Notes: generated by a model from the letters alone, not told the origin. A stretch of DNA of 64,000 nt from an uncultured Chlamydiae bacterium (GCA_963754655.1 CAVWGN010000001.1:704001-768000); one strand, 5' to 3'; shown: positions 20,621 through 60,593, counted from the first letter of the stretch. Numbers and translations: made by a program.

Positions 20621-20940
20621 GGGTGTGATTAAATCTGGGAGTTTACATTTTTAGTAGATCGATACGAAATGGTAGAGCGGCGGTAGCCGCTTTCAGTGGG
20701 AAGCCCCGTATGAAGCGAGCTTGCGAGTGGAATGCGGGGATGGGCATCAATAAAATATAAACCGCGGAAGCGGTGGGAGTGATCTTACGCTGCTTCCGCA
20801 GCTCAATGCTATTTTGCCTACACCCCGCATTCCGCTCGCAAGCTCGCTTCATACGGGGCTTCCCACTGAAAGCGGCTACCGCCGCTCTACCATTCGTATC
20901 GATCTGCTAAAAATATAAACTTCCAGATTTAATCACACCC
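20621..20940. mobile_element. Palindromic MITE/REPIN family A, copy 1 (320 bp)
   Basis: GGGTGTGATTAA...TTAATCACACCC with about 120-130 bp inverted arms; 9-bp direct repeat ATGTTTTAC at 20612-20620 and 20941-20949. Confidence 0.9.
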
Positions 20941-21255
20941 ATGTTTTACTAAAAATATTTGACACTTACAGTCCTTCAGGTTGCATGACAACCCACTCAA
21001 CCCCAGGGGTTGCTTCATACGCATCAAGCTAAGAGATGAGCGTAGGCTACGCGACGCATTCAGTCGCCGCGCCGCTTCGCTCTGGGCTCTGTGTGTGGGG
21101 TTGAGGCCTTCGGTCGCCCTCCGGGCTCGGTCACGGTAGGCTATTACCAGTCGTCCTACGGACTCTAGCGGCAATTTAGAAGCCATTGAATGGTATTTAA
21201 GGCGTTCTGATATTGCCGCTAGAGTCCGTAGGACGACTGGTAATAGCCTACCGTT

Positions 21256-21397
21256 GGGACTTAACAAAGAACTGTTTTGGGCTTGATATTCATCGCGTCA
21301 ATTTAACAACACCACGCCTGTAACAGGCTTTAGGGGCATATTTCTCGAAAATGACGCGAAAAATAATCAAGCCAAAAACAGTTCTTTGTTAAGTCCC
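21256..21397. mobile_element. Family C MITE-like element, copy 1 (142 bp)
   Basis: About 32-bp terminal inverted repeats GGGACTTAACAAAGAACTGTTTTGGGCTTGAT; interior inverted relative to copies 2 and 3. Confidence 0.8.
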
Positions 21398-21476
21398 GGC
21401 ATATGGCTAGGTAATCGGAATTTTTTATCTTTATTTTTGCAATGTTGCTTGATCCATATCCTTTCCCTCAGCGACG

Positions 21477-21768
21477 AGCGGCGTTAGCCGCGCATGGATA
21501 GTAGCCGTGGGTGTAGGCGCAAGCCGAAACCCACGGTTACCCAAAAACAAATTTGAGCCACGTTAGTGGCGTAGCATTCGTTTAAATAAACATTGCTCCA
21601 CAATCACATTTCCTACGCCACTAACGTGGCTTCATTTTTTTTACCATACACCGTGGGTTCCGGCTTCGCCTACACCCACGGCTACTATCCATGCGCGGCT
21701 AACGCCGCTTGAGCGACAAATTTAGCTTCTGGAGTTTGCCAGAAGCATTTCGCTCCTAGCCTATGGCC
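21477..21768. repeat. Family D REP-doublet palindrome, copy 1 (left outer arm missing)
   Basis: GCGGCGTTAGCCGC / AGCCGTGGG..CCCACGG / GCCACGTTAGTGGC arm and its inverted copy around a 38-bp loop. Confidence 0.85.
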
Positions 21769-21910
21769 GGGACTTAACAAAGAACTGTTTTGGGCTTGAT
21801 GTTTTTCGCGTCATTTTCGGGAAATATGCCTCTAAAGACTTTTACAGGCGGTGTGTTGTTAAATTGACTCGACGAATATCAAGCCCAAAAACAGTTCTTT
21901 GTTAAGTCCC
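21769..21910. mobile_element. Family C MITE-like element, copy 2 (142 bp)
   Basis: Same TIRs as copy 1; flanked on both sides by GGCC (21765-21768, 21911-21914). Confidence 0.8.
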
Positions 21911-22261
21911 GGCCATAGAATAGGAACGAAATGCTTCTGGCAAACTCCAGAAGCTAAATTTGTCGCTCAAGCGGCGTTAGCCGCGCATGGATAGTAGCCG
22001 TGGGTGTAGGCGCAAGCCGAAACCCACGGTTACCCAAAAACAAATTTGAGCCACGTTAGTGGCGTAGCATTCGTTTAAATAAACATTGCTCCACAATCAC
22101 ATTTCCTACGCCACTAACGTGGCTTCATTTTTTTTACCATACACCGTGGGTTCCGGCTTCGCCTATACCCACGGCTACTATCCATGCGCGGCTAACGCCG
22201 CTTGAGCGACAAATTTAGCTTCTGGAGTTTGCCAGAAGCATTTCGTTCCTAGCCTATGGCC
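21911..22261. repeat. Family D palindrome, copy 2 (complete, about 350 bp)
   Basis: GGCCATAG..GAAATGCTTCTGGCAAACTCCAGAAGC.. outer arms on both sides plus the REP doublet; 493-bp offset from copy 1. Confidence 0.85.
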
Positions 22262-22402
22262 GGGACTTAACAAAGAACTGTTTTGGGCTTGATGTTTTTC
22301 GCGTCATTTTCGGAATATATGCCTCTAAAGCCTGTTAAAGGCGGTGTGTTGTTAAATTGACTCGACGAATATCAAGCCCAAAAACAGTTCTTTGTTAAGT
22401 CC
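22262..22402. mobile_element. Family C MITE-like element, copy 3
   Basis: Same TIRs, last C absent; a few substitutions relative to copy 2. Confidence 0.8.
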
Positions 22403-22548
22403 AGACCGAACGGTGGGCCTCAACCTCACACACAAGCCCAGAGCGAAGCGGCGCGGCGACTGAATGCGTCGCGTAGCCTACGCTCATCTCTTAGCTTGAT
22501 GCGTATGGGGCAACCCCTGCGGTTGAGCGGGTTGTCATGCAGCCTGAA

Positions 22549-22670
22549 GAGGCTGACAGCAAATTGATAATTTCGGACGTATATAATTTATTTTAACTGG
22601 TCTTGAGTATATTGTGAGTGGTTTCAAAAAATTATTTAAGGTCCGAAATTATCCATTTGCTGTCAGCCTC
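22549..22670. mobile_element. Family I MITE (122 bp)
   Basis: 30-bp TIRs GAGGCTGACAGCAAAT(T/G)GATAATTTCGGAC with 1 mismatch; GAA duplicated at 22546-22548 and 22671-22673. Confidence 0.85.
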
Positions 22671-22789
22671 GAAGGGTTGCAATTGTCAAAGATCAAGCCT
22701 GGAGCGAAGCCGGCGCGGCAATTGAAGGCGTCGTTTAGCTTGCTCTCTCTTGTAGCTTAATGTGTATGCGTAGCATTTGATTTGAAAAT

Positions 22790-24703
22790 TTAGATCTGCC
22801 AATTGAAAAGCCTAGTCATTTTGCTGAAAATGGTATTCGAGACAAACTCAAGATCTTTTTTAAAGCTTTCATCTGCATATTTAAGAGCCATGCTATCTTG
22901 CTGAACGGCAATCAAGACAATGTTTGGATCTTTTTTAAGACTTTCATCTGCATATTCAAGAGCCATGCTATTTTGTTGAACGGCAATCAAGACAATGTTT
23001 GGATCTTTTTTAAGACTTTCATCTGCATATTGAAGAGCAGAGCCATCTTGATTAATGGCAGCCAAGACAATTTCTCGATCTTTTTTAAGGCTTTCATCTA
23101 CACATCGAAGAGCCCTGCCATTTTGCTTAACAGCAGCCAAGGCAATGTCTCGATCTTTTTTAAGGCTTTCATCTGCAAATTGAAGAGCAAAGCTATCTTC
23201 CTGAATGGCAATCAAGACAATGTTTGGATCTTTTTTAAGACTTTCATCTGCATATTGAAGAGCTTGACCATCTTGATTAACAGCAGCGAAGACAATCCCT
23301 CGATCTTTTTTAAGGCTCTCATCTACAAATCGAAGAGACCAGCCATTTTGCTGAACAGCAGCTAGGACAATCTCTCGATCTTTTTTACAATTTTCATATG
23401 CATATTGAAGAGCCCTGCCCTCTTGCTGAACGGCAGTCAAGACAATGTCTCGATCTTTTTTAAAGCTTTCATCTGCAAAGTAAAGAGCTAAGCCATTTTG
23501 CTGCACGGCAGCCCAGACAATCTTTCGATCTTTTCTAAAACTTTCATCTGCAAATTGAAGAGCCTCTCCTTGTTGCTGAATGGCAGTCAAGACAATCTCT
23601 TGATTTTTTTTAAGGCTTTCATCTGCAAATTGAAGAAACCAGCCATTTTGCCGAACAGCAGCTAAGACAATGTCTTGATCTTCTTTAAGGCTTTTATCTG
23701 CATATTCAAGAGCCGAGCCATTTTGCTGAACGGCCGTCAAGACAATGTCTCGATCTTTTTTAAAGCTTTTATCTGCATATCCAAGAGCCCGGCCATTTTT
23801 CTGAACAACAGCTAAGACAAACTCTCGATTTTTTTGAAGACTTTCATCCGCAAATCGAAAAGCACTTCTATCTTGATTAATGGCATCTAAGACAATCTCT
23901 CGATCTTTTTTAAGGCTTTCATCTGCATATTGAAGAGCCAGGCCATTTTTCTGAACGGCAGCCAAGATAACCTCTCGATCTTTTTTAAGACTTTCATCAA
24001 AAACAGAATATCCAAAATAGCGAGCAACTTGTATAAAAATTTTTCTATCGTTAAAATTGGGAAATTTTTTAAGCGTGGAGATGACCGATTCTTTTGCCCG
24101 TTCTGATATGATATAGTCTCTACCGCCCACATAAAGTTTTGCGATAAAATCATTTTTGATCATTAGGAGTCTTTGATCATCAGTGCCCCATATAAGAGAA
24201 TTTAAAATAGACAATTGCCTTTCGGCCACTTGCCCGATGTTCTTATTGGCACTAGTTTTGCAAATTTGGTGATTCCATCGATAGTGATCCAAAAGAGAAA
24301 GAAATAAACTGTTAGCGCAAAATAAAGATGATTGAACCGTTAACAATTTTTCAAATTTTGCTCCATTACTGCTGGCTCGATCAATCAATGTAAGTTCTTG
24401 AGATGTAAAAGACTGCTTTTGCTCAGTTGCGAGACATTCTCGGGGAAGGTTAATAGGGGAGTGAGGATTCTTTTTAAGTTGAAAAAGAGTCTGCGCTAAG
24501 GAGATGCAAGGATTTTGCTCAAAAACTCTTTTCCATCTTGTACAAGTGAATAAAATAGAAGCAATATCACTTAAAAGTGGACTTTCTTGATTGACAATCC
24601 GATCAAAAAAAATTTCTAATATCTCATCAGGAAGTAGGGCGTTTAAGCAAACTTCGTTTAAAATGGTTTGCGCGGCTTGTGAATTAACAAGCGTAAATTG
24701 CAT
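22790..24703 (-). CDS. F-box-like plus DUF4116-type 25-aa tandem repeat protein, paralogue 2
   Basis: N- and C-termini nearly identical to 18594-20504; 15 full repeats with different variable residues. Confidence 0.85.
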   Translation of the reverse strand: MQFTLVNSQAAQTILNEVCLNALLPDEILEIFFDRIVNQESPLLSDIASILFTCTRWKRVFEQNPCISLAQTLFQLKKNPHSPINLPRECLATEQKQSFTSQELTLIDRASSNGAKFEKLLTVQSSLFCANSLFLSLLDHYRWNHQICKTSANKNIGQVAERQLSILNSLIWGTDDQRLLMIKNDFIAKLYVGGRDYIISERAKESVISTLKKFPNFNDRKIFIQVARYFGYSVFDESLKKDREVILAAVQKNGLALQYADESLKKDREIVLDAINQDRSAFRFADESLQKNREFVLAVVQKNGRALGYADKSFKKDRDIVLTAVQQNGSALEYADKSLKEDQDIVLAAVRQNGWFLQFADESLKKNQEIVLTAIQQQGEALQFADESFRKDRKIVWAAVQQNGLALYFADESFKKDRDIVLTAVQQEGRALQYAYENCKKDREIVLAAVQQNGWSLRFVDESLKKDRGIVFAAVNQDGQALQYADESLKKDPNIVLIAIQEDSFALQFADESLKKDRDIALAAVKQNGRALRCVDESLKKDREIVLAAINQDGSALQYADESLKKDPNIVLIAVQQNSMALEYADESLKKDPNIVLIAVQQDSMALKYADESFKKDLEFVSNTIFSKMTRLFNWQI

Positions 24704-24978
24704 AAATATCCTTTAATTAATTTTATATACTTTAATTTTTTATTACTGATTTGATAATAATCAAATTGTTAATTGTATAAATATAATACATTAATGGCAA
24801 TTATTTTATTTACATTAATTGCAACTAATTTTTTTTTGATATAGATAAAAGCCTTAATAACCTGAGCTTTTGAGTTTATCTACTGCGAATGAGGAAGAGC
24901 GGCTGAACGGTTGGGTTTACAGCCTTGTGTATATGCTAACGCGGCTAAATGTTTTCAGACAATTCCACTGCTGTTTCT

Positions 24979-25896
24979 CTAAACATTTAGTTCCTTTAAT
25001 TCAGCTTGTTCTTGATCTCCTGCCCATTTCCAAAGAGCATATTGCGCAATAAGAGGAATGGCCACCATCGTCACGGCTGCTGCTATAGGATGAATACCTG
25101 CTCCTTTCCATAGCATAAAAAAATCATGGCCTTCTGATTTAGGATCAAGAGATGTTAATGAAAGTGCCGAGAGTGCATAGAAAACATGGTTAATAACTCT
25201 TGCAATGGCCATATAAACAAGATGTAACCGAAGCTCGGGATGAGTATCTTTAACTTTATGTGCAAAAGCAAGAAGCACTGTTGCCTCTAAAGTAGCAAAG
25301 GCAGCTCCAGCTGCCGTCACTGCCATCAATGCTCTTTTTTCTCCAAGCCACTGTCCCACTCTTGAGAGCGCAGTGCCATAAAAAGTCGTTACTCCTCCTC
25401 CTTCTGGGAAAAGTTCTATTATAGGATTCTCATTTTTGAATAACAGGCGAACCATGAAAGCATGGCCCATCTCATGAATAAGTGTCCCATGAGTATATCC
25501 ATTAGATACAGCAAAAAACCAAGCGCGCAAATGATGCAAATCCAATATCGCATTGCATTTAAGCAAAAGGAAGCTTGTATTATCTAAATTGCCATCACGC
25601 AGAATATCACAACACAGGCTGTAATCAAGTAAAGCTTCGGTACAATGGAAAAGAGTGGTGAGGGCTATGACAGTAATTAAACTCATCATGACAGTAGGGA
25701 TAGCGGTGGTTGCCATGAAGCAACAAGCGGTTCCAGCTGCTAGAGAGGCTACAACCAATTCTCCCAGACAAGTTGATGCTACCTTCCAAATTAACTTATC
25801 CCTGATTTCCTGCTCATTTAGAAGAACTTCTTCTCCATTGTCATCTAAACTTTTACATGCAAGATAAAAAACTGGAAGATTATGTACATAAATCAT
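24979..25896 (-). CDS. Membrane metalloprotease, M50-like
   Basis: HEMGH zinc motif in a hydrophobic context, AAGA segment, and distal GHD as candidate third ligand. Confidence 0.7.
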   Translation of the reverse strand: MIYVHNLPVFYLACKSLDDNGEEVLLNEQEIRDKLIWKVASTCLGELVVASLAAGTACCFMATTAIPTVMMSLITVIALTTLFHCTEALLDYSLCCDILRDGNLDNTSFLLLKCNAILDLHHLRAWFFAVSNGYTHGTLIHEMGHAFMVRLLFKNENPIIELFPEGGGVTTFYGTALSRVGQWLGEKRALMAVTAAGAAFATLEATVLLAFAHKVKDTHPELRLHLVYMAIARVINHVFYALSALSLTSLDPKSEGHDFFMLWKGAGIHPIAAAVTMVAIPLIAQYALWKWAGDQEQAELKELNV

Positions 25897-26237
25897 AAGA
25901 ACTCATTTTTAATGATGATTAGTTGTTTTAAAGATAGTTGATGATAGATAATAAATTAAAAAAGATTATAATTCAATATAATAGTATGTTATTAGATAGG
26001 TTAAAGAAGTTTTTTAAAATGAGAAAAATCAACCCTTGAAAAAATAATTTCTTGTTTTAAATAGTTTTGATTAAATGTAATAGGCCCATGGATTAAAACA
26101 TAGAATTTCCCTATGTTTCTTTTATATGGTTATCAGACTAAATAGGATTTTACTATGAAAGATTTTTTGTTTAAATGTTTCATGTAAACCTTCTTCTGTG
26201 AGGTTATTGAGAGCTTGAAACAGAGAATGAATAAGTG

Positions 26238-26263
26238 CTCAGCTCATGTTGCAATGAGCTGAG
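26238..26263 (-). terminator. Hairpin downstream of the BI-1 gene
   Basis: CTCAGCTCAT-gttgca-ATGAGCTGAG, 11 bp past the stop; weak U-tract. Confidence 0.45.
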
Positions 26264-26274
26264 TAGTGAATAAA

Positions 26275-27138
26275 TTAGCTATTCTCGCTTTTTTTGTTCT
26301 CGAGCATAATTCTGAGAATTCTTAAGAAGATGTTCAATCCATCTAAATAAATATTTAGAGAAGAATTGATCGCATCGAAAACTGCGTCACTTTGTTTTTC
26401 AGCCTCTTCCATTAAGCGTTGTGTGCTAGACATCAACAAGCCAGAAAACACGACTAATCCACCATATAGCGAAGCGCGATCCACACCATAAGCAAAGGCA
26501 GTATTGGGGAAGAAACATGCGATAAAGCTTGCAATTGAAAGACTGCTTAAAGCGGCCATCAAAGGACCTTCCCAGGCTAAAAATCTTCTATCAGGGGCTA
26601 GGAAAGCTGTGAGCGTTAAAGCGCCTCCTAATCCAAGAGAAATGGCTGCCGCTTGTGCAACGACTCTTTGATCTAAAAATCCAAGAGGAGATAACATCAT
26701 TCCCATCGTGGCATTAAAAACGAACCAAGCCACATTCTTTGCTTTATCACTTTCTTTGCTAATCGTTAGAGTGGCAATAAGTGCTGCGCAAGATCCAAGA
26801 GCGAGTGGAATAGCTAAGTAGCGATTCTGTAGAATTTTAAGGGATAAACCGCTAATATGAGCGACAGCAGCACTCGCTGCAGTGAGGGCAAAACCGCCAA
26901 ATACGTAGCCATAAGCACGGCATACTCTGGCTTTTACTTGCTCAAAATTAGCATCTGGCTGCATGTTATCAAAGTTCTGATCAGCTTGACTCCAACGATA
27001 AATTCCCAGTCCAATTAACGCAGTTGCGCTGGTAGCTAAAATAATGCCGCTCCAACGAGTTACAGAAGAATTGAGAAATTGATTAAAAGTAGACCAATGT
27101 GTAGCAGAAGGGACATGCATAAAATTCGAAATATTCAT
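26275..27138 (-). CDS. Bax inhibitor-1/TMBIM family membrane protein, GHITM-like
   Basis: Seven or more TM segments; C-terminal FDAINSSLNIYLDGLNIFLRIL signature. Confidence 0.85.
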   Translation of the reverse strand: MNISNFMHVPSATHWSTFNQFLNSSVTRWSGIILATSATALIGLGIYRWSQADQNFDNMQPDANFEQVKARVCRAYGYVFGGFALTAASAAVAHISGLSLKILQNRYLAIPLALGSCAALIATLTISKESDKAKNVAWFVFNATMGMMLSPLGFLDQRVVAQAAAISLGLGGALTLTAFLAPDRRFLAWEGPLMAALSSLSIASFIACFFPNTAFAYGVDRASLYGGLVVFSGLLMSSTQRLMEEAEKQSDAVFDAINSSLNIYLDGLNIFLRILRIMLENKKSENS

Positions 27139-27350
27139 ATGTTCCTTTATAATGATAGTTTTGCAAAAGAATCTATTGTAATTGATTAGGATTGTATCGG
27201 CTAATCTAATACCTAATCTTTACTAATCCTTAAAATTATTCATAATTGAAAATAAAAAACAAGAAGTTTATTTTATTCAGAAAATACTTGGATGTCAATT
27301 GGCTATAATAATGGAATTATGTATAAATTTATTTTTAAATTGGAAGGGCT

Positions 27351-27989
27351 ATGTTTGAACAAGAACTCTTTTCTCTAAATCCTGTTCAATTCTTTGCTCT
27401 CTCTTGTGATTGCTCTTATTTAATCCAGAAAGAGCAAATGCCTTCCTTGATAACCCACGCCTTGCCTTCTACTCAACGTTTAACGCGGGAAGAGCATTTT
27501 GCTAAGGTGGCGCTAGGATGGAATGAAGAGGGGATAGCAATACAGGTGCAGGTCAATCAGCCTGCCAGTGAATCTTTCTATCCAAAGATAGAAGAAGGAG
27601 ATAGTGTGGAATTATTTATTGACACGCGCGATCTCAAATCGACTGGTTTCAACACACGCTTTTGCCATCATTTCTTTTTCTTGCCTCAAGCAGTGGAAGG
27701 AGTGACAAAAGGAGAAAAAACGCATTTTCGTACAGAAGATAAACATTCTTTGTGCGATCCTCAAGCGCTTCATTGTCAAACACAATTAAGACGCAATCAC
27801 TATCTGATGAAAATTTTTATTTCCACTCAATGCTTATATGGATATGATTCTAGACAATTTGATCGTTTGGGTTTTACTTATCGCATTAATCGGCCTAAAG
27901 GCAAACCTCAGCATTTTACCGTGGTATCGCAGGACTATCAACTTGAACAGCAACCTTCACTGTGGGGATCGATTAAATTAGTGAAATGA
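27351..27989 (+). CDS. Hypothetical protein with DOMON/CBM9-like motifs; first gene of the gcv operon
   Basis: LGWNEEGI and GDSVELFIDTR resemble CBM9-like DOMON domains; ATGA overlap with gcvT. Confidence 0.55.
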   Translation: MFEQELFSLNPVQFFALSCDCSYLIQKEQMPSLITHALPSTQRLTREEHFAKVALGWNEEGIAIQVQVNQPASESFYPKIEEGDSVELFIDTRDLKSTGFNTRFCHHFFFLPQAVEGVTKGEKTHFRTEDKHSLCDPQALHCQTQLRRNHYLMKIFISTQCLYGYDSRQFDRLGFTYRINRPKGKPQHFTVVSQDYQLEQQPSLWGSIKLVK

Positions 27990-30768: not shown

Positions 30769-30770
30769 AA

Positions 30771-32219: not shown

Positions 32220-32224
32220 GAAAG

Positions 32225-36018: not shown

Positions 36019-36644
36019 GCTTACGCTTGGGCGGGTGTGATTAATTTTTTAGCAGATCAATACGAAATGGTAGGGCGGTGGTAGCCGCTTTTAGTGGGAA
36101 GCCCCGTATGAAACGAGCTTGCGAGTGGAATGCGGGGTGGGCATCAATAAAATATAAACCGCGGAAGCGGTGTGAGTGATCTTACGCTGCTTCCGCAGCT
36201 CAATGCTATCTTGCCTACACCCCGCATTCCGCTCGCAAGCTCGCTTCATACGGGGCTTCCCACTGAAAGCGGCTACCGCCGCTCTACCATTTCGTATCGA
36301 TCTGCTAAAAATATAAACTTCCAGATTTAATCACACCCCCGCTTGGGCTGTGGGCTAAAAAAAGAATAGGGCAAGCGCTAAAATTTAAGCCTTAAAGCAC
36401 TTAAAATGATAGCTGAAGTTTTGCAAATGTGAAATTATCTCATTTGATCACGCAATCTTGTACAATTGTTAATCTTTTCCTCTTCTGCCTGAGAAAGTAG
36501 TGATGATGCTCTTTTTTAGTGGCTTACATTTGATTGTGCAACCAGTAGATTGAAATTTGCAAAACTTCAGCTATCATTTGAAGTGCTTTAGGCTTAAATT
36601 TAGCGCTTGCGCTATTCTTTTTTAGCCCACAGCCAAGCGTCAGC
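36019..36644. repeat. Family E palindrome (about 90-bp arms, about 126-bp spacer), left arm split by A copy 2
   Basis: GCTTACGCTTGGGC|TGTGGGCTAAAA..TTTTGCAAAT pairs with ATTTGCAAAA..AGCCCACAGCCAAGCGTCAGC. Confidence 0.8.
36033..36338. mobile_element. Family A, copy 2
   Basis: Same element with a deletion of about 15 bp in the left arm; CGCTTGGGC duplicated at 36024-36032 and 36340-36348, with one extra C. Confidence 0.88.
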
Positions 36645-36703
36645 GCAGCTGTGGGGTCAGGAGAAAACTGATTGTTCCCAGAGGGGGACGTCGTGCGCCC
36701 GGG

Positions 36704-37031
36704 TTGGGATGAGATGATTCTCTTGTAGTCCTTCAGACTACATGACGAGGGTTAATCTAACCCAGGGCGATGCCCTGGGCTATTTTTATTTGAAGCCTTT
36801 CAGGCTCTGAACAATTAGACATCTTTTTATTAACCGTCTCTAAATGATTGTGGAGTATGTACCATTTAATAAGGCATGGCCCTACAATCGTTATAGAAGG
36901 AGTTCTTTCAAAAATGTCCAATGTTCAGAGCCTGAAAGGCTTCAAATAAAAATAGCCCAGGGCATCGCCCTAGGTTAGATTAACCCTCGTCATGTAGTCT
37001 GAAGGACTACAAGAGAATCCTCTCATCCCAA
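36704..37031. repeat. Family F REP-doublet palindrome
   Basis: About 110-bp inverted arms containing AGCCTGAAAGGCT, AGCCCAGGGCATCGCCCT(G/A)GG and GTAGTCTGAAGGACTAC; flanked by CCCGGG on both sides. Confidence 0.85.
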
Positions 37032-37040
37032 CCCCCGGGG

Positions 37041-37438
37041 CTAGGGTGTTCATTTTGTGCAAAAAATGAGCTTTATTTTTCACAATAATTGGCATAATTA
37101 AATTAAAGGTCGCATGTTTATGCCGTCCTTTCAGGACTCGATGTCTTTTTGATAGAACCCAGGCCTCCGCTTCGCTGCGACCTGGGCTGTAACATGACGG
37201 CCCTTCAGGCCTTAACAAAAAGATGATTTAGGGTCTATAGAAGAGGGACTTAAACATCTCTTGTTAAGGCCTGAAGGGCCGTCATGTTACAGCCCAGGTC
37301 GTAGCGAAGCGGAGGCCTGGGTTCTATCAAAAAGACATCGAGTCCTGAAAGGACGGCATAAACATGCGACCTTTAATTTAATTATGCCAATTATTGTGAA
37401 AAATAAAGCTCATTTTTTGCACAAAATGAACACCCTAG
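37041..37438. mobile_element. Family G palindrome (398 bp, near-perfect arms of about 178 bp)
   Basis: CTAGGGTGTTCATTTTG...CAAAATGAACACCCTAG; CCCCGGGG on both sides (37033-37040, 37439-37446). Confidence 0.88.
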
Positions 37439-37459
37439 CCCCGGGGCTTTGAAGCAGTT

Positions 37460-37493
37460 CCAATGGGCAAAAACTAATGTGGTTGAGTACTAG
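37460..37493. repeat. Solo copy of the outer end of the 60-kb palindrome
   Basis: GCAAAAACTAATGTGGTTGAGTACTAG versus GCAAAAACTAGTGTGGTTGAGTACTAG at 60567-60593; a degenerate copy lies at about 46442-46475. Confidence 0.7.
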
Positions 37494-46475: not shown

Positions 46476-46797
46476 GGGTGTGATTAACTCTGGGAGTTTA
46501 TATTTTTTAGCAGATCGATACGAAATGGTAGAGCGGCGGTAGCCGCTTTCAGTGGGAAGCCCCGTATGAAGCGAGCTTGCGAGTGGAATGCGGGGTAGGC
46601 ATCAATAAAATATAAACCGCGGAAGCGGTGTGAGTGATCTTACGCTGCTTCCGCAGCTCAATGCTATCTTGCCTACACCCCGCATTCCGCTCGCAAGCTC
46701 GCTTCATACGGGGCTTCCCACTGAAAGCGGCTACCGCCGCCCTACCATTTCGTATCGATCTGCTAAAAAATATAAACTCCCAGAGTTAATCACACCC
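46476..46797. mobile_element. Family A, copy 3
   Basis: Full element; AGTGACTA duplicated at 46468-46475 and 46798-46805. Confidence 0.9.
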
Positions 46798-52325: not shown

Positions 52326-55300
52326 ATGAAGCGGATAAGGTGGATAATTGTTGGCTCTTTGTTCTTCTGTATGCTTATTTTTCATCATGCTTTCTTGACT
52401 TTCCTTGCCAGTTGGGCGCTCCAAGTTTTTTCTGTTTCTCATTGGGGGGGATCTCTTCAATATGAAAATCTCTCTTTGATAGGCACACGATTAGTGATCA
52501 TTCAGCCTCGATTTGAGCATGCCTCTTCCTTTAAAGCTGAACGCATAGCCTTAAATTTTAATGTTCATTTATGGAAACGGCAACTGGATGTTGAAATAGA
52601 AATTGAACAACCTCATTGGCATTTTCAGATGCCTATGACTTCGCAATGGGAAAAATGGGCAAAACTCTTGAGTCAGGAAGAAAATTGGATCAAAATCCAT
52701 CCCCATTTGCATATTAAAAAGGGTTTGGTCACTTGGTCATTTGAAGAGGAGCCTTCTCATCAATTGCATTTTGATTTGGCAATCAATAATCAAGAAGGTG
52801 GCTCTATTCAACTTTATTTCGATTCTGAGGAATCGATGACTCCTTCACTTGTTTTGCAAACATTTCAGGTTGCTCATGGCGTAGAAATCAACTGCACCTG
52901 CGAAAAAATCAGTTGTCCCTCTTTTATTGCTCTAGCTCAATTTTTTGGAGTTAATGTTTCGCCTTGGCAACTCACATCCGGTTCCTTGCATGGGCAATTA
53001 AAGGCCATTTTTCCTAGAATGAAAAGACCCTATCTTGAAGGCGAATTAATTGTTGAAAAATTGATATTTAATCAATTAGGAATTGCACTAAATGGACAAA
53101 TTGAACAGGCACGTCTTAAATTAGAAAAAAATCAACCTGCTTATGAATTGAATGATCAAATTTCGACGACTATTGGACAACTTGACATTCTCAAACCTGC
53201 CTCCTTGTCTTATGATTCTCCAATCCATGCATGGACCCTGCAACGGATCCTGGGAAGCATTCAACTTAACCCGATGGCGACAGCTCTCATTAATCTTGAA
53301 GCTCAAAGAGGCGATGACCCTCATGGCTCTTGTTGGGGTCTAACAGGCAAGGCGAATTTAAATGCTCAACGTTCATTCAATTTAGATTTAACTTTGTCTT
53401 GTTATGCTTGGGGACAGCCTAATGGCAAAATGCATTTAGCTTTAAACCAATTGCAAGAGGGACATAAACATGCTGAAATGCAATTGGAGAATCTTTCTCA
53501 TGCAGACTGCGATTTCTTACAGACTTTGCTTGCGACCTATTGGCCAATTTTTAATGAGGTGTTGCTTACTGATGGCAAACTCAATGCTTTAATTGAAGCA
53601 GATGTGATGCATCAGGGAATTGGAGAACTCCATATCAAGCAATTTGAAGCCTTTGGTTTACGTTCCAAAATTAAACCTTGGAATATGAGTTGCGACTTTG
53701 AACAAATAAGAGGTTCTGGAAAAGTCCATCTTGGAAAACAAGATTTTTGGCAATCGCTTACGGCAGAATTGCATGTAGAAGAGGGGAAAATTCAATTTGA
53801 AAATCTCAGTCCTTCGTTACCTTTAACTGATATTCAAGCCCATTTACTCATTCAACAAGGACATGTCGAACATTCATTAATCACTCTTCAACTTGCAGGT
53901 TTGAAAGGAAAAATGGATGTTGAATGGGGCAAGCATAAACAACTTTTAACTTTTAAATTAGATGGAATTGTAGAGGATTTAGCACATTTGCTGCCTAATA
54001 GTTTACAAGAGGGTTTGCATAAACATTTTCATCATAATCATTTGATGGTATTGGCTAATTTTAAAAGGCAAAACCAACAAATTGAACTTGGTGGTACACT
54101 CCATATTCAACGTACGAATACAGATCAAATGGATTTGATTCACTTCGGCTGTGATCTTAAAAAAATTCAAGAAGGCTCAGAATCCAAATATGTTCCAGTT
54201 GGCTGGTTCCATGCTCAGAAGCTTCCTCTAGAAAAGTTTTTATCTCCCTTCATTTTCCGTAATGGAATTTTACAAATGTCCGGAGAGGCAGAATTTAAAG
54301 GATCATTTGATGATCAATTTCTCCTCATTAAATACGATGTCAATGATTTAAAAATAGAAAATGACAATTTATGTATTGAAATCCCGCAGCTATATTCTCA
54401 AATTCCCGGGCAGCTTGTTGGATCGCATCGTCTCGATCTTCACACCTCTACTTATCAAGGGACTCTTCCTATTCAGTATGCCTCTTATTTTGAAAAAAAT
54501 ACTGGCCTTGCCTTTCAATCTATTCAGGGACTGATGACCTTTAAAAACGACTTTATCCGCATTGCCCCTATTGAAAGCTATTGTGAAGGAATTTATTTTT
54601 CTGGAGAGCTTGAATTAGATTATAGCGATCCCGTCCCTGGAGTATTTGATGTGAAGATTCATTGTCCAACCTTTTCCGGGAAAGTCTCTCAAATTCAAGA
54701 TTTAGTGGCCCATTTAGATCAACCTTCATTATTACATACAGTTCCTTTGGAAGGCGATGTGACAAGCAAAGAGGAGGGATTGCATTTAAACTTTACTTTT
54801 ATTCCTAATGACTATCAGTTCAAGGCCAATATTCGCGGAGCAATGACAGATGGAAGATTAGTCTTTAAAGAGGCTGACATGGCTCTTAAGGGAATTGATA
54901 TGGATATTGATTATGATCACCAGCAACAGCTTTTGGCTTTTACCGATATTCAAGGAGCGTTCTTGGTTGGTAAGCCTCGTCGAGTCGAAGAATATCTTTT
55001 TACTGGACATCACGTGCATTTTTATCAAATTGCTCAACCTAATATCGACATCGATGTTGCCATCAAGGATAAAGAAAAAGAGTTATTACGTTTAGTGGGA
55101 TATACACAGGAAGAGCAAGGAGGTGTCAAAAGTCTTTATTTAAATCAAAAGCTTTCCCATCTCAGTTGTCTTTACCCTCACGTTTGGCAATGCAAGATAA
55201 AAAATGGGGCACATCTAGAACAACTTGAGTTCCGCTCAGAATTTGATGTAGGAAATTTATTTCATGATTTATGCAGCTTTCGTAAAACGGGCTTTTCCTT

Positions 55301-57440
55301 TTTATCACCTAATATCATTGATAAAATTTCTCAATTTTTGCCCCTAGAAGGACAAGGCTTTTGTGCTCTTCATTATCATCCTGATCAAAGTTATACCTAT
55401 CAGCTCGAAGGAAGACGCATAAAACAAGGCAATCTTAGCGAACATTTTGGATGCCTCAAAGGAAGTAAACATGAGAAAAAATGGATTGTCGACCAATTGC
55501 AATGGGATGATTGGAATGTTTATGCAGAATTGCATCAGATGGAAGATAAATGGAAAATTCCTTTTTTAGGATTAAAGGTTGGGCAAGCTGTATTGCTTGG
55601 ATTAGAAGGGGATTGGTTTCATGAACATGCTTTTTTACAAGCAAAACTCAAATTTTGTGAGGTGGACTTAGATGAGTTGGATCATTTTGATGCTTTGAAA
55701 CCCTTCGTAACGAAATGGTGGCCAAAAGGAAAAGTAAATGCAACAGGAGAAATTGAATGGAATCTCCTCACTTCTAATTTTTGGGAGGGTTGTCAAGCTT
55801 CTTTATTAGCAGAGGCCAGCAATTTATCTTTTAGAGATTATCCTTTACGAGTTTTAAATTCTTTCAAAATAGATCTTCATCCGCTTCACCATTTTCGTTT
55901 GGAGAATCTCCACCTTGAACTTTTTCCGTTAAAAAGCCACTCTTATATCGATTTAAAAACATTTGAATATTTGACTGCTCAGGATTCTATTGGTTTTATG
56001 CAAACTGTTTTTAACATTCCTCATACGCAATTAAAAATTGTAGGAGAAGCACTTCATCATCATTTTCCCGATGTGTTTGATGTGACCGTGAAAGAGCTCT
56101 TCGTAAACGCGAAGCGAGAAAAAGCGTTAAAGGGAGTTCTAACAGTTGAACATCGCCTTCCTGGTCAGAATTTTCTGCAGTTAAAACTAGAAGATGGCCT
56201 TTATCTATTCAAAAAACGAGAATATGATCTCAAACAATTTGATCTGCAAATGATTGGAGAAGACTTGCGGTTCTCAGCTTTTTCTCAGCAAGAGTGCTAT
56301 CCATTTCAAGTGATTGGACAATCCAAGTGGCCTGCTTGTCAACAAGTCCAATGTCAATTCATCGGTGCGGGGACATCCCAACCCTTAATGGTCCAATGGC
56401 AGAATCATCCACAACAAGGATGGATGCTTCATGCTATGCAGGGGGATTTTGGCGGTTGTTCTTTCCGTTTAAGAGAAGATCAAGAAGCTGCGCCAAATAC
56501 TGGATGGATGGCTTTACAAGGGCAAATCACAGTAGATTTTAATCAGTTATGCCCGTTGTTATCTCGATCTGTAGCTGAAGCCATTCAAAAATTAAAAATG
56601 GGATCTTTTTATTCTTTTATAGGCCATTTTTGGATGAATTCAGATGTGGGTTCGACTTTTTTGGATACTATTTCTTTTCAGGGAAGCTTGACAAGTGAAA
56701 AGGCTATTTTGAAAGGATATCAAGTGCAGAGTTTGCAAGCAGATGTCCAATATGTGCCTGGCCGCTTAGATATGCAAAATGTGTGGATTCAAGATCCAGC
56801 AGGAAATCTTAAGGCTGCGAATTGCATGGTGATTCAAGATCAGAAGTTTGATAAATGGACTTTTTTTATTCCAAGCCTGACAGTAAAAAATTTGCGCCTT
56901 AATCATTTAAGAGATGCAGAAGATGATGCTCGGATCAATTCTAAATTCCGTTCATTGATTGTGAAGCGAATTGAATTTCAAGATTTGAGTGGGGAATTGA
57001 ATCAACTGCACACTTGGCAAGCGGAGGGAAACTTACATTTTGTGAATCCATCACGCAAGAATTTTTTTCATCCTCTTTTGGCAATTCCAGCTGAAATTAT
57101 TTTGCGTTTAGGTTTGGATCCGCATGTTTTTAATCCTGTCACGGGTATCATTTACTTTCGCTTACAGAACAGACGCTTTTATTTCAATCGTTTTAAAGAT
57201 GTCTATAGCGAAGGTAGAGGATCAAAATTTTACTTAGCACAGGACAACGATTCTTCTTGGATGGACTTTGATGGAAATCTATCGGTCAATGTGCGCATGA
57301 AGCAATATAACCTTATTTTCAAAATTGCAGAACTTTTCACAGTATCCATTCAGGGTAATATCAAAAGGCCCCGTTATAGTTTACAAAAGCAATCGAAAGG
57401 CTCTCGAAAAAGACAAATGCCACCCATGGTGAGTAGCTAA
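52326..57440 (+). CDS. Large beta-rich envelope protein, AsmA/TamB/YhdP-like (1704 aa)
   Basis: N-terminal TM anchor, amphipathic beta-strand pattern throughout, C-terminal VSIQGNIKRPRY motif. Confidence 0.55.
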   Translation: MKRIRWIIVGSLFFCMLIFHHAFLTFLASWALQVFSVSHWGGSLQYENLSLIGTRLVIIQPRFEHASSFKAERIALNFNVHLWKRQLDVEIEIEQPHWHFQMPMTSQWEKWAKLLSQEENWIKIHPHLHIKKGLVTWSFEEEPSHQLHFDLAINNQEGGSIQLYFDSEESMTPSLVLQTFQVAHGVEINCTCEKISCPSFIALAQFFGVNVSPWQLTSGSLHGQLKAIFPRMKRPYLEGELIVEKLIFNQLGIALNGQIEQARLKLEKNQPAYELNDQISTTIGQLDILKPASLSYDSPIHAWTLQRILGSIQLNPMATALINLEAQRGDDPHGSCWGLTGKANLNAQRSFNLDLTLSCYAWGQPNGKMHLALNQLQEGHKHAEMQLENLSHADCDFLQTLLATYWPIFNEVLLTDGKLNALIEADVMHQGIGELHIKQFEAFGLRSKIKPWNMSCDFEQIRGSGKVHLGKQDFWQSLTAELHVEEGKIQFENLSPSLPLTDIQAHLLIQQGHVEHSLITLQLAGLKGKMDVEWGKHKQLLTFKLDGIVEDLAHLLPNSLQEGLHKHFHHNHLMVLANFKRQNQQIELGGTLHIQRTNTDQMDLIHFGCDLKKIQEGSESKYVPVGWFHAQKLPLEKFLSPFIFRNGILQMSGEAEFKGSFDDQFLLIKYDVNDLKIENDNLCIEIPQLYSQIPGQLVGSHRLDLHTSTYQGTLPIQYASYFEKNTGLAFQSIQGLMTFKNDFIRIAPIESYCEGIYFSGELELDYSDPVPGVFDVKIHCPTFSGKVSQIQDLVAHLDQPSLLHTVPLEGDVTSKEEGLHLNFTFIPNDYQFKANIRGAMTDGRLVFKEADMALKGIDMDIDYDHQQQLLAFTDIQGAFLVGKPRRVEEYLFTGHHVHFYQIAQPNIDIDVAIKDKEKELLRLVGYTQEEQGGVKSLYLNQKLSHLSCLYPHVWQCKIKNGAHLEQLEFRSEFDVGNLFHDLCSFRKTGFSFLSPNIIDKISQFLPLEGQGFCALHYHPDQSYTYQLEGRRIKQGNLSEHFGCLKGSKHEKKWIVDQLQWDDWNVYAELHQMEDKWKIPFLGLKVGQAVLLGLEGDWFHEHAFLQAKLKFCEVDLDELDHFDALKPFVTKWWPKGKVNATGEIEWNLLTSNFWEGCQASLLAEASNLSFRDYPLRVLNSFKIDLHPLHHFRLENLHLELFPLKSHSYIDLKTFEYLTAQDSIGFMQTVFNIPHTQLKIVGEALHHHFPDVFDVTVKELFVNAKREKALKGVLTVEHRLPGQNFLQLKLEDGLYLFKKREYDLKQFDLQMIGEDLRFSAFSQQECYPFQVIGQSKWPACQQVQCQFIGAGTSQPLMVQWQNHPQQGWMLHAMQGDFGGCSFRLREDQEAAPNTGWMALQGQITVDFNQLCPLLSRSVAEAIQKLKMGSFYSFIGHFWMNSDVGSTFLDTISFQGSLTSEKAILKGYQVQSLQADVQYVPGRLDMQNVWIQDPAGNLKAANCMVIQDQKFDKWTFFIPSLTVKNLRLNHLRDAEDDARINSKFRSLIVKRIEFQDLSGELNQLHTWQAEGNLHFVNPSRKNFFHPLLAIPAEIILRLGLDPHVFNPVTGIIYFRLQNRRFYFNRFKDVYSEGRGSKFYLAQDNDSSWMDFDGNLSVNVRMKQYNLIFKIAELFTVSIQGNIKRPRYSLQKQSKGSRKRQMPPMVSS

Positions 57441-57726
57441 TACATGAGTAGAAGATATATCTTCCTCTTTTAACTTAACCTTCTTAATAATTTTTAGGCT
57501 TTGAGTATGCCGTCCTTTCAGGACTCGATGTCTTTTTGATAGAACCCAGGCCTCCGCTTCGCTGCGACCTGGGCTGTAACATGACGGCCCTTCAGGCCTT
57601 AACAAGAGATGTTTAAGTCCCTCTTCTATAGTCCCTAAATCATCTTTTTGTTAAGGCCTGAAGGGCCGTCCTTTCAGGACTCGATTCTTTTTTATTTTAC
57701 CCAGGCCTCCGCTTCGCTGCGACCTG

Positions 57727-58568
57727 GGGCGTGTTTTAAAAAGATTATTTATGATATAATAATAGTTGTAGGGACCCATAGGAGGTGTTTATGACTAGAA
57801 TGTTTTTAAAAGATAAGGACTGGGAGAAGCTAAGTCCATTATTACCTTCGCAAACAGGTAAACAGGGAAGACCTAGAAAAAATGATCGGTTGGTAATAGA
57901 AGGGATTTTATGGTCTATAAGAACGGGAGCTCCTTGGAGAGATATGCCCCCTGAATTTGGCCACTGGCAAACGATCTATTCAAGAATGCATAACTGGACC
58001 TTAAATGGAACTTGGTCAAAAATTTGGAGTGTTTTGAAAAAAAAATGCATCCCACGAATCACATATTATTGATTCTACAAGTGTTAAAGTACATCAAAAT
58101 GCAATGGGAGGTTTTGGAGGAAAAACATTTAATGGAATTGGAAAGACACAAGGTGGTTGGTCAACAAGAATTCATGTTGTAGTTAATGCTGAAGGGCAAC
58201 CATTAAAAGTAAAAATTGCTCCTGGAAATAGAAATGATAATTTATTTGCTAAATCTCTATTAAATGGGAAACGAGCAAAAAATGTTATAGCAGATCTAGC
58301 TTATGATACAGATGAAATTAGATACTATTTAATGAAAAGAAAGGAACGAGCTGTCATTCCAAGTCACCCAAAGAGAACTGATGAAATTCCCTATAGCAAG
58401 CGTTTGTATAAAAAAAGAAAGGTTGTGGAGAATTTTTTCCAAAAACTAAAAACTTTTAGACGAATTGCTACTCGTTACGATAAGTTAGGAAAAATATTTA
58501 GAGGAGTGGTTATAATTGCGTTTATTATAATTTATATCACACATTGGTAATGTTTTTCAAACACGCCC
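57727..58568 (+). mobile_element. IS5-family insertion sequence (IS427-like), 842 bp
   Basis: 21-bp TIRs GGGCGTGTTT(T/G)AAAAA(G/C)ATTA, 19/21 identical; TG duplicated (or CTGG if the ends are one base shorter); the empty site GACCTGGGCTG is seen in other G arms. Confidence 0.93.
57791..58550 (+). CDS. IS5-family transposase in two frames joined at an A9 run
   Basis: orfA: GILWSIRTGAPWRDMPPEFGHWQTIY; orfB frame: IIDSTSVKVHQ, ADLAYD, VENFFQKLKTFRRIATRYDK; GGAGG RBS before ATG 57791. Confidence 0.9.
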
Positions 58569-58823
58569 TGGGCTGTAACATGACGGCCCTTCAGGCCTTA
58601 ACAAGAGATGTTTAAGTCCCTCTTCTATAGTCCCTAAATCATCTTTTTGTTAAGGCCTGAAGGGCCGTCATGTTACAGCCCAGGTCGCAGCGAAGCGGAG
58701 GCCTGGGTAAAATAAAAAAGAATCGAGTCCTGAAAGGACGGCATAAACATACGACCTTCAATTCAACTATGCCAATTATTGTGAAAAATAAAGCTCATTT
58801 TTTGCACAAAATGAACACCCTAG

Positions 58824-58902
58824 ACCAGGGCAACGCCCTGGGTATAAGTGTGTTGTGTCATGCAGCCTGAAGGGCTGCCAGAGTGTCAAATTTTTAGTAA
58901 AA
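58824..58902. repeat. Solo family H arm
   Basis: CAGGGCAACGCCCTGGG..GTCATGCAGCCTGAAGGGCTGC..GTGTCAAATTTTTAGTAAAA, a reverse-complement match to about 20944-20990. Confidence 0.75.
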
Positions 58903-58906
58903 TACC

Positions 58907-58976
58907 AGTCATGAAACACGTCCTATGGGCCCTACAACTATATTTATATCATAAATAATCTTTTTCAAACACGCCC
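58907..58976 (-). mobile_element. Isolated inverted left end of the same IS5 lineage
   Basis: Reverse complement GGGCGTGTTTGAAAAAGATTATTTATGATATAAATATAGTTGTAGGGCCCATAGGACGTGTTTCATGACT aligns to 57727-57796. Confidence 0.85.
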
Positions 58977-59337
58977 CAGCCCAGAGCCGGGACTTAATAT
59001 CTAAGCAACTTTTTGGGGTTTTCTCTCTGTTCTTCGCGTCACTTTTGTTACCAGTGATTTTTATCAGTTTCAATGCCTTTTTTCCTTCATCTGTTTCTAA
59101 TTGCTCTTATCGGTTTTAGCACTTTCTTCCTTCGACTTAAGAATGTGGGACCAATATTTTCAACTTCCCATTGCTTAACTTCACTATAGGGATCATTCTC
59201 AAATGCTTAAACCAGTAAATCCTCTTCCATTTGATTACGAATCATTCGTAATTGACATTTTATTTTAATAATTTTATTTCTTGAATGTATACCTAATTGC
59301 CTTGTAATTCTTAACGGCTTAGATTCTTGAATAGGAG

Positions 59338-59910
59338 ATGGTTATGAAGTTATTCTGTTATACAATGTCATTGACGATGATCTTTGGATCTCTTTTGGGC
59401 GAGTCAGCGAATTCATCTAACAGTTCCCAACAATCTAATGGTTTTGATCCTGCTATTTATTTGAAATATGAAGATTATAAATGGGAGAAGCTCATTCCAG
59501 AATTGGGAGATCTATCAGCAGAAATGACAATTCTACATGTCAACCCCAAAACAGGAGGAACTCAATTAATGATTCGTTGTCCAAAAAATTATCATGCTCC
59601 AAAACATTGGCATACAGCTAATGAAACACATTATTGCGTTTATGGCCACTTTCTGATGAGAGATCATGATGGAAAAGTTGCAGACTTAAGCCCTGGTTCT
59701 TACAATTATATGCCAAGCAAAATGATTCATGAGGGATGGACCAATTCAGAGGAAGGAAATCTCCTTTACATATCTCTCGATGGTCCCTGGGATATCAATT
59801 TTATTGACGGAACGCCTACGCCCAAACAAGTGCATGATTTATCTAATAGACCTGTATTTCCCAAATCGTCAAAACCGCCTATATATCCCTCTGTAAGTGA
59901 GGTAAAATAA
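59338..59910 (+). CDS. Exported cupin-domain protein (DUF4437-like)
   Basis: Signal peptide; HWHTANETH and PGSYNYMPSKMIH cupin motifs; AGGAG RBS. Confidence 0.75.
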   Translation: MVMKLFCYTMSLTMIFGSLLGESANSSNSSQQSNGFDPAIYLKYEDYKWEKLIPELGDLSAEMTILHVNPKTGGTQLMIRCPKNYHAPKHWHTANETHYCVYGHFLMRDHDGKVADLSPGSYNYMPSKMIHEGWTNSEEGNLLYISLDGPWDINFIDGTPTPKQVHDLSNRPVFPKSSKPPIYPSVSEVK

Positions 59911-60096
59911 CAAGATTGTACTCGGAATAATCCTATTTTGGAGATTTCATTTTATTAGTTGTAGTTAGATAGAGATTATCTCGTCCATTCAGAGATGAAT
60001 GCTTTAAATTTGAAGGAGATCATCAAATTTTTCCAATCAAAAGTTCCGAAATCGTCCAGTCTCTATCGTTAAACTTTACTTTCAGCTTATACTCTT

Positions 60097-60593
60097 CTAG
60101 TACTCAACCACACTAGTTTTTGCTTATTAGGACGGTGCAAACCCTCGAGGCGTTAAGGTAAGAGATGAGCGTAGGCTAAGCGACGCATTCAGTCGCCCGC
60201 CGCTTCGCTCTGGGCTCTAGGTAAGGGGATATGGACCCACCGTTCGGTCGCCCTCCGGGCTCGGTCACGGTGGGCTAGGATCAGTCGTCCTCCGGACTCT
60301 AGCAGCAGTGTAAAAGCCATGGAATATTAGGTAAGACGTTTGATAATGCTGCTAGAATGCTAGTCAAGGCGTTTTGATAATGCCGCTAGAGTCCGGAGGA
60401 CGACTGATCCTTAGCCCACCGTGACCGAGCCCGGAGGGCGACCGAACGGTGGGTCCATATTCCCCTTACCTAGAGCCCAGAGCGAAGCGGCGGGCGACTG
60501 AATGCGTCGCTTAGCCTACGCTCATCTCTTACCTTAACGCCTCGAGGGTTTGCACCGTCCTAATAAGCAAAAACTAGTGTGGTTGAGTACTAG
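60097..60593. mobile_element. Family B palindrome, intact (497 bp, about 207-bp arms)
   Basis: CTAGTACTCAACCAC...GTGGTTGAGTACTAG; arms near-perfect; the loop contains a duplication of about 24 bp. Confidence 0.88.

Follow-up and report, generated by a model that had tools for sequence, protein, structure and literature searches.

Three-hairpin repeats in the window

We analysed a 64-kb stretch (hereafter, the window; positions 704001–768000) of the 3.12-Mb chromosome of an uncultured Chlamydiae bacterium (GCA_963754655.1), whose assembly includes a second contig, C2, of 35,310 bp and has an overall GC content of 38.8%. Its gene content and its relatives indicate an environmental chlamydia. 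The window contains clusters of inverted repeats with arms of three hairpins each, and these arms are probably the DNA sites of a subclass of Y1/HUH transposases encoded elsewhere in the genome. A total of 25 inverted-repeat pairs of at least 30 nt were detected, with near-perfect arms where an earlier annotation made without database searches (hereafter, the sequence-only reading) had placed them, i.e., 189 nt (99% complementary) at 37030–37449, 133 nt (100%) at 60097–60593, 121 nt at 46476–46797, 113 nt at 36701–37034, and 161 nt at 21634–22287, together with arms of 72 + 48 nt at 20621–20940.

Five repeat families in the window (A, B, D, F and G) share one layout, which comprises hairpin-1 (H1), about 10 nt, an AGCC-footed hairpin-2 (H2), about 20 nt, and hairpin-3 (H3). 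The arms are ~81–120 nt long. No Y1 gene was detected inside the window by the PF01797 profile search of the genome. The features are as follows, with bit scores from a covariance model of such arms that is described below.

20621–20940, A-family element of 320 bp with terminal inverted repeat (TIR) GGGTGTGATTAA; inward arms at 20674–20776 (+) and 20787–20888 (-)
20612–20620 and 20941–20949, 9-bp direct repeat ATGTTTTAC around the first A element
20950–21260, B-like partial modules; short outward palindrome at 21133–21254 and weak model match at 21114–21167 (10.2 bits, E 0.76)
21475–21711, D inward doublet; arms at 21475–21572 (+) and 21615–21711 (-), 41.5 bits each, within larger P/Q and X modules
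21968–22204, second D inward doublet; arms at 21968–22065 (+) and 22108–22204 (-), 42.3 and 40.1 bits
21256–21400, 21755–21890 and 22258–22407, repeat module GGGACTTAACAAAGAACTGTTTTGGGCTTGAT... around the D doublets; 155 blast matches in the genome, no AGCC arm of its own
36033–36338, second copy of the A element; arms at 36072–36173 (+) and 36184–36285 (-), CGCTTGGGC at either flank, the boundary being shifted by 1 nt
36340–36691, outward doublet of a minor extra family, reading TAGCGCTTGCGCTA-11-AGCCCACAG...; five strict-descriptor copies genome-wide, 11.6 bits (weak)
36701–37034, F outward doublet; arms at 36726–36809 (-) and 36926–37009 (+), 18.8 and 13.8 bits
37043–37436, G full element of 394 bp with TIR GGGTGTTCATTTTGTGC; outward arms at 37123–37214 (-) and 37265–37356 (+), 44–45 bits; the left flank ends in CCCCGGGGCT, the element runs from A to T, and the right flank begins with AGCCCCGGGG
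37437–37493 (+), shared terminal module ending in AAACTAATGTGGTTGAGTACTAG; ~149 copies in the genome
46476–46797, third copy of the A element; arms at 46530–46631 (+) and 46642–46743 (-), all three hairpins, 8-bp direct repeat AGTGACTA on both sides
57510–57727, G arms on one side of an insertion sequence (IS); 57510–57601 (-), a weak arm at 57583–57669 (+) and a truncated one at 57666–57723 (-)
58564–58741, G arms flanking the IS on its opposite side; a weak arm at 58583–58669 (-), and 58651–58741 (+) at 44.4 bits
60097–60593, B element in a terminal-module shell, with CTAG followed by TACTCAACC at the left end and GGTTGAGTA followed by CTAG at the right; outward arms at 60197–60300 (-) and 60387–60497 (+), 21.9 and 17.9 bits

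The IS that splits the G arms (57728–58563) is of the IS5 type and lies in the H2 stem of an arm. It has two frames, one DUF4096-like and then DDE_Tnp_1 (58104–58550), its ends read GGGGCGTGTTT...AAACACGCCC with CCTGGG on both sides, and its 148-aa open reading frame (ORF) recurs seven times in the genome. The repeat at 46476–46797, presumably the one that the sequence-only reading had set apart as a family of its own (H) preserving hairpins 2 and 3, is a full A copy.

Genome-wide census of the arms

A strict descriptor of the layout (H1 with a stem of at least 4 and a loop of 3–5, 8–14 nt, AGCC and an H2 stem of at least 5, 17–24 nt, and H3) matched 436 sites in the chromosome, 216 and 220 on the two strands, compared with 26, 37 and 30 in three dinucleotide-preserving block shuffles. 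The tripartite, strand-polarised layout is therefore real, and its hairpins and spacings can be read as the sequence-only reading quoted them. The sites belong to G (~219), D (64), A (46), F (~30) and B (2), with a few small extra families; only two B arms meet the descriptor because the B hairpin-3 is compound. By blastn, arms covered over at least 70% of their length made up 38 of 72 matches for A, 73 of 82 for D, 290 of 339 for G, 54 of 170 for F, and 86 of 117 for B, i.e., 541 arms in total, with no blast overlap between families. The repeats homologous to the four window clusters amount to 142,804 bp, or 4.5% of the genome. The arms are intergenic, as none of the 536 chromosomal arms lies in an ORF of at least 200 aa, although such ORFs cover 71% of the chromosome. 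On contig C2, possibly a plasmid, the repeat families occupy 1.4 kb and account for five of the 541 arms.

Pair counts across the genome agreed with the orientations first described in the window, i.e., inward for A and D (30 of the 34 inward D pairs with a 46-nt gap) and outward for G (106 pairs, 58 with a 56-nt gap), B (34 pairs) and F (6 pairs). Arm identity within doublets was 0.988 for G and 0.972 for B, higher than the respective 0.969 and 0.904 between doublets, and the two arms of the D doublet are fixed, different subtypes. The copied unit was thus the doublet or something larger.

Y1 genes next to the arms

The PF01797 search of the genome gave ten matches, seven of them full-length, with E values of 1e-22 to 5e-26. 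Among the seven, L001 scores 147.7 bits to NF033573 and encodes a classical IS200 transposase; the covariance model detected no arms at this copy. The other six (L002–L007) score 63–73 bits to NF033573 and 21–25 bits to the RAYT model NF047646 (cut-off 80), and encode proteins of 148–150 aa with the motifs DH[VIL]H, WQ and KYIxNQKEHH (Y motif Y---Q--HH), with DHLH in L007 and EYH in L006 as variants. A phmmer comparison of L004 with the IS608 TnpA places the Tyr of Y---Q--HH on the YIENQ motif, with the HUH His residues offset by one column. The paralogs share 37–43% identity, with the exception of the near-identical tandem pair L003/L005.

These genes share motifs, length, low copy number and low paralog identity with TnpAY1 subclass 1.2, which is described as having DH[IV]H, WQ and YIKNQKEHH motifs, ~148 aa, a short conserved C-terminal tail, and few copies per genome that are ~36% identical and show no IS-like behaviour (PMC6006769). 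Judged by motifs and profile scores, L002–L007 are IS200-like TnpAY1 proteins of subclass 1.2 and not RAYT/TnpA-REP. In contrast to IS200/IS605 elements, which have several near-identical copies with subterminal left-end and right-end hairpins on one strand and often a tnpB, the paralogs are diverged, their arms are inverted on opposite strands, and none has an adjoining tnpB.

Comparison of the family arms with eight Y1 loci by blastn revealed that family-specific arms abut the Y1 genes, i.e., A-like arms at L002, F at L003/L005, G at L004, D at L006, and B at L007. At L002, complete A-like arms (32.8 and 24.8 bits) stand on either side of the gene, within 167-nt inverted ends. G arms flank L004 on both sides (39.4 and 8.5 bits), with a degenerate upstream copy, and the inverted repeat of L004 stops 3 nt outside H1, without a shell. 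A flanking target duplication was not seen at either L002 or L004. The tandem genes L003 and L005 each have a full F-type arm ~11 nt before the ATG (11.9 and 12.6 bits) and only H3' past the stop, the sole D arm at L006 lies 3' of the stop (35.0 bits), and a partial B arm abuts the stop of L007, with a full B doublet alongside (21.6 and 21.5 bits). In the hairpin maps, H3 ends ~10–14 nt ahead of the ATG in L002 and L003/L005, and the inverted arms lie 3' of the stop in L002, L004 and L006. The proposal of a REP/HUH-type system thus stood as to the HUH enzyme, given six Y1 genes beside arms, but not as to a RAYT.

The region C1:2542103–2548299 contains three F-type Y1 genes within 6 kb (L003, L005 and L008), of which L008 is broken by stop codons. 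L003 and L005 are intact and 2.1 kb apart, with ENHVH in one and EDHVH in the other. Further Y1 fragments occur at 452890, 492043 and 412935. No RNA datasets containing the L004 locus were listed; one soil-metagenome DNA run shared a small part of its words.

Arms beside related genes in other genomes

Sampling of 200 genomes of the phylum identified full-length subclass-1.2 genes in 18 other genomes, and at 13 of these 18 loci a complete tripartite AGCC arm lies no more than 400 nt from the gene, with hairpin sequences unlike those here. One genome per species was also scanned, which gave at least 593 loci encoding relatives, of which the best 80 (from Planctomycetota, Verrucomicrobiota, Acidobacteriota, Bacteroidota, Chloroflexota and others) were taken for arm analysis. 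A full strict match was present at 58 of these 80 loci (127 matches), versus 2–6 loci (2–6 matches) in five shuffles. The coding-strand arm typically ends 7–50 nt upstream of the start codon, and the inverted arm starts within ~55 nt of the stop. The published account of subclass 1.2 has "REP: no" in its Table 1 and lists mainly Cyanobacteria and Bacteroidetes (PMC6006769), whereas the genes analysed here have tripartite arms and occur also in Chlamydiae, Planctomycetota, Verrucomicrobiota, Acidobacteriota and others.

Across 44 aligned foreign arms the AGCC is invariant (44/44), and compensatory changes are found in 13 of the 14 predicted pairs; as these arms were selected for perfect stems, the independent evidence comes from the shuffle control and the gene-anchored positions. 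The loops are polarised as noted in the window. Of 58 arms read on the AGCC strand, 41 have a GNA/GNNA loop in H1 and 35 have one in H3, and the mirror form occurs in one arm for each hairpin. The 4-nt loop-proximal stems of H1 and H3 are identical in 27 of the 58 arms (mean 8.3 and maximum 17 in 2000 re-pairings).

A covariance model (R1) built only from the 44 foreign arms detected all five window families, with 44–45 bits for G, 40–42 for D, 21.9 and 17.9 for B, 12.9–21.4 for A, and 18.8 and 13.8 for F. The structure-plus-spacing layout proposed by the sequence-only reading was thus recovered both here and in other phyla, where spacing and loop polarity hold, and the profile search for Y1_Tnp found arm-flanked HUH genes in this genome and in its chlamydial relatives. 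The idea of six sequence-unrelated families survived only in part. Five families share the layout without blast overlap, but they are diverged relatives and not unrelated in an evolutionary sense, since one covariance model aligns them all.

In a tree of 22 chlamydial Y1 proteins, clade membership (supports 96–100) follows the type of H2 sequence across chlamydial families. The AGCCGTGGG clade contains the D gene of this genome, the AGCC[CT]AGGGC clades contain its F genes, and the AGCC..ATGTG clade its A-like gene. Enzyme and arm therefore diverge together, and the six paralogs here, as placed by their protein sequences, belong to old, separate clades. This does not fit the suggestion that one class of enzyme reads structure rather than sequence, as each family has its own paralog (37–43% identity) and the clades track arm sequence.

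Dispersed arms were also detected in five genomes of other phyla (7, 14, 23, 29 and at least 150 model matches), often as tight inward doublets. The tight inward doublets of an acidobacterial genome (G203, L148–L161) keep their hairpins while the spacers differ between the two arms, and in 14 acidobacterial doublets the palindrome extension halts at H3 because of this difference. The G203 doublets look old or selected and not recently copied, unlike the 97–100% symmetric chlamydial elements. A search with 6.5 kb of the window in three same-genus genomes found no syntenic flanks, and only D-type repeats matched (65–84% identity).

Correspondence with Acido-Lenti-1

The Rfam family RF01687 (Acido-Lenti-1) is filed as a likely small RNA (sRNA) of Acidobacteria and Lentisphaerae (Weinberg 2010, PMC2864571). 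As drawn there, its two hairpins are separated by 12 nt and the first is followed by GGCU, an arrangement that is the reverse complement of H1, spacer and AGCC-footed H2. It differs from the arms in that the Rfam model, as given, is on the opposite strand and covers H2' + H1' only, without the third hairpin and the AGCC register. An Rfam search of 20 loci (E ≤ 0.01) gave 25 matches, of which 24 were to Acido-Lenti-1, and 17 of these 24 reached the 37-bit gathering score. Arms from other phyla scored 39–60 bits. The chlamydial arms fall mostly just under the gathering score because their H2 carries long inserts; in this genome 11 of 150 scored candidates pass, and the window gave no Rfam match at the gathering score because most G arms score 36.4 bits.

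No transposase link for Acido-Lenti-1 is given in the tables, the alignment or the motif drawing of Weinberg 2010 (PMC2864571), and the accessible text of a 2026 preprint still describes the family as "of unknown function". The open-access literature searched included no paper tying Acido-Lenti-1 or these repeats to Y1 enzymes or subclass 1.2, and none on systems of REPs or of miniature inverted-repeat transposable elements (MITEs) in Chlamydiae.

TIR shells and target duplications

Most copies of the arms in this genome are enclosed in larger elements with their own ends. The A elements (27 full copies, 306–325 bp, TIR GGGTGTGATTAA) have perfect 8–9-bp direct repeats at their ends in 12 of 27 cases, and several more are off by one base or by a 1-nt boundary shift; all three window copies have perfect or near-perfect end repeats. 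A terminal module of ~50 nt, ending in GTGGTTGAGTA followed by CTAG, has ~149 genome copies and bounds 47 elements, with CTAG at the left end in 40 and at the right end in 36, and neighbouring elements share one CTAG. These shells enclose a bare 158-bp palindrome, G cores, B cores (as at 60097–60593), or a G element plus a bare core. The G full-length elements (66 copies, mostly 390–396 bp, TIR GGGTGTTCATTTTGTGC) have TA within CTAG or TTAG...CTAA at 58 of 66, usually set in CCCWGGG or CCCCGGGG palindromes, and the D doublets lie inside further modules ending at CTAG.

A TA duplication at CTAG is a hallmark of IS630-family transposition, and the ends of a resident IS630-family IS read CTAG followed by TACT. 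The shells resemble IS630/Tc1-mariner-type MITEs in their TIRs, TA/CTAG flanks and tandem elements sharing one CTAG, and differ in that a Y1 arm doublet forms the core of each shell and no autonomous partner was found that shares their TIRs. Because TIR shells with target duplications enclose most copies, their spread in this genome is probably the work of a DDE-type transposase. Several candidate partners were rejected. Larger elements with shell TIRs at their ends hold nothing but secondary insertions of the IS5 type or of IS256, look-alikes of the A-type TIR (up to two mismatches) are due to chance or unrelated repeats, and IS256 has ends that differ from the A TIR.

The genome also encodes IS5-type, IS1182-like, IS256, TnpB and rve elements, several of them inserted into arms. 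An IS256-family copy (C1:1307274–1308476, L024) is located exactly in the middle of a G doublet and is bordered on either side by TTATAGAAGAG, and an rve-type IS (C1:1043382–1044536, L028) abuts a G arm. The hairpin repeats are landing sites for other ISs.

Aside from the repeats, the genome has large paralogous families of eukaryote-like repeat proteins (L009–L023), including DUF4116 (56 copies), LRR, PPR-repeat (10 copies), Myb-like (9 copies) and TPR proteins, and two multi-copy ORF families without a Pfam match (28 and 12 copies).

Comparison with REP/RAYT and TIRtron systems

The closest known parallels are the "REPtrons" of repetitive extragenic palindromes (REPs), their doublets (REPINs) and RAYT enzymes (PMC2817692; PMC3116915; PMC3333891; PMC3479197). 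As in those systems, as outlined in the papers, a single-copy Y1/HUH gene is enclosed by hairpin-repeat copies in inverted orientation, the repeat itself is intergenic, abundant and often in inverted doublets, each repeat family has one paralog, and a conserved tetranucleotide stands at the 5' foot of the main hairpin. Set against the same outlines, the enzyme here is class 1 (IS200-like, Y---Q--HH) whereas RAYTs are class 2 (Y---NP), the repeat is ~90 nt with three hairpins and an AGCC foot whereas a classic REP is a single 20–40-nt hairpin with GT[AG]G, and most copies here are inside shells with TIRs and target-site duplications (TSDs). A GTAG-CC reading at the hairpin foot is found only in the D family.

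The terms TIRtron and TIRYT were coined for Y1 genes flanked by long inverted repeats (Di Nocera 2013, PMC3733652). The inverted repeats described there may hold palindromic tracts and form dispersed families, and L002 with its 167-nt inverted ends fits; unlike here, the accessible text of PMC3733652 defines no tripartite AGCC layout.

Proposed mechanism and alternatives

Given the combined analyses, the arms are probably cognate cis-acting DNA sites of the subclass-1.2 Y1/HUH enzymes, read as hairpins of the AGCC strand, and their dispersal in this genome was probably mostly via DDE-type miniature elements. We infer, by analogy, that the Y1 enzymes bind and cleave the arms. The basic unit would be [H1 - AGCC.H2 - H3]> Y1 gene <[H3' - H2' - H1'], resembling a REPtron or TIRtron. 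If the ancestral unit was [arm> gene <arm], the inward gene-less doublets (A, D and those of other phyla) may be REPIN-like derivatives. A Y1 enzyme of the matching clade would bind H2 via its (T)AGCC foot, which is placed like the GTAG in TnpA-REP sites and the guide tetranucleotide of IS608 TnpA, and would probably nick and rejoin the arm, with H1 and H3, which are alike as GNA-looped mini-hairpins, as putative auxiliary binding sites. Arm doublets may then have become the cores of TA/CTAG-targeting and 9-bp-duplicating miniature transposons, probably accounting for most of the 541 copies, with IS630-like DDE transposition likely behind the terminal-module, G and D shells and a 9-bp-duplicating transposase behind A. 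Copying by Y1 would thus not be the main driver of copy number here, and the present role of Y1 at many sites may be excision, copy-number control, or DNA processing linked to replication forks.

Several observations weigh against this explanation. Recognisable arms are present on both sides of only two of the six genes (L002 and L004), the partial arm abutting L007 is in an atypical orientation, and the foreign model gives the F and A arms weak scores (11.9–21 bits). The 44 aligned arms were picked by a perfect-stem descriptor, so that their pairing is partly by construction. The G, B and F doublets are outward (H1–H1), unlike what simple gene loss from [arm> gene <arm] would give. The DDE partner is unproven because an autonomous element with the shell TIRs was not found in the genome, and the IS630-like IS resembles the shells only in its first few bases and the CTAG target.

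Two alternatives concern how the elements spread. They could be plain DDE-transposon MITEs, with the three-hairpin cores as passengers or stabilising structures and with an incidental proximity to Y1 genes, as ISs and repeats tend to pile up. The TIRs and target duplications of A, the terminal-module shells and the G shells are in line with this, as are the IS256 copy in the middle of a G doublet and the rve-type and IS5-type insertions in G arms. We nevertheless consider it unlikely, since arms adjoin the genes at 58 of the 80 loci from other phyla (2–6 of 80 when shuffled) and at 13 of the 18 loci from chlamydiae (the search at these loci was for arms and not for shells), the L004 inverted repeat stops 3 nt beyond H1 and lacks a shell, and the protein clades follow arm type. 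Conversely, subclass-1.2 Y1 itself could insert the elements, nicking opposite strands at two inverted arms and so making the duplications, with no DDE transposase involved. The failure to find an autonomous DDE element with the shell TIRs would agree with this, as would L002 as a gene-bearing element with 167-nt inverted ends, the inward arrangement of A and D expected after gene loss, and the higher arm identity within than between G and B doublets. But L002 and L004 have no flanking duplication, TA/CTAG targeting agrees with the resident IS630-family IS, and one terminal module encloses different cores, which points to an end-recognising transposase; Y1 transposases, as established for IS200/IS605, are not known to make target duplications. 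Insertion by Y1 therefore appears quite improbable, and we give just as little credence to the broader version in which a phylum-spanning REPIN/RAYT-like system, with arms misfiled as Acido-Lenti-1, is combined with Y1 itself inserting the elements with target duplications here.

The least probable of the alternatives weighed is that the arms are sRNA genes or RNA structures (Acido-Lenti-1), acting for example as regulators or terminators. The RF01687 model does match H2' + H1' on the opposite strand, with 17 of 24 matches at or above 37 bits, covariation alone cannot separate RNA from single-stranded DNA, and the family is still "of unknown function" in the 2026 preprint text. However, the copies form mirror pairs on both strands and flank one gene family on either side, hundreds of them are inside TIR/TSD elements, the polarised GNA triloops belong to the AGCC strand, opposite to the one used by Rfam, and the Rfam model lacks the third hairpin and the AGCC register.

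Significance

With the arms read as DNA sites of subclass-1.2 enzymes, the system is a variant of the REP/RAYT kind, new relative to the literature searched, and it explains an orphan Rfam family. It offers a likely identity for Acido-Lenti-1, an abundant orphan "RNA" family, and a DNA partner for a Y1/HUH subclass that its describers listed without one. Repeats of this kind are prone to mis-annotation as sRNAs. The REP/RAYT principle would extend to a second, IS200-like enzyme branch and to Chlamydiae, the wider Planctomycetes–Verrucomicrobia–Chlamydiae (PVC) group and Acidobacteria. HUH sites nested in TA/CTAG-targeting miniature transposons suggest that one mobile system can spread the sites of another, and target duplications made by Y1, if true, would be a chemistry new for HUH Y1 transposases. 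Six paralogs and five or more arm families in one genome provide a rich test bed for specificity swaps.

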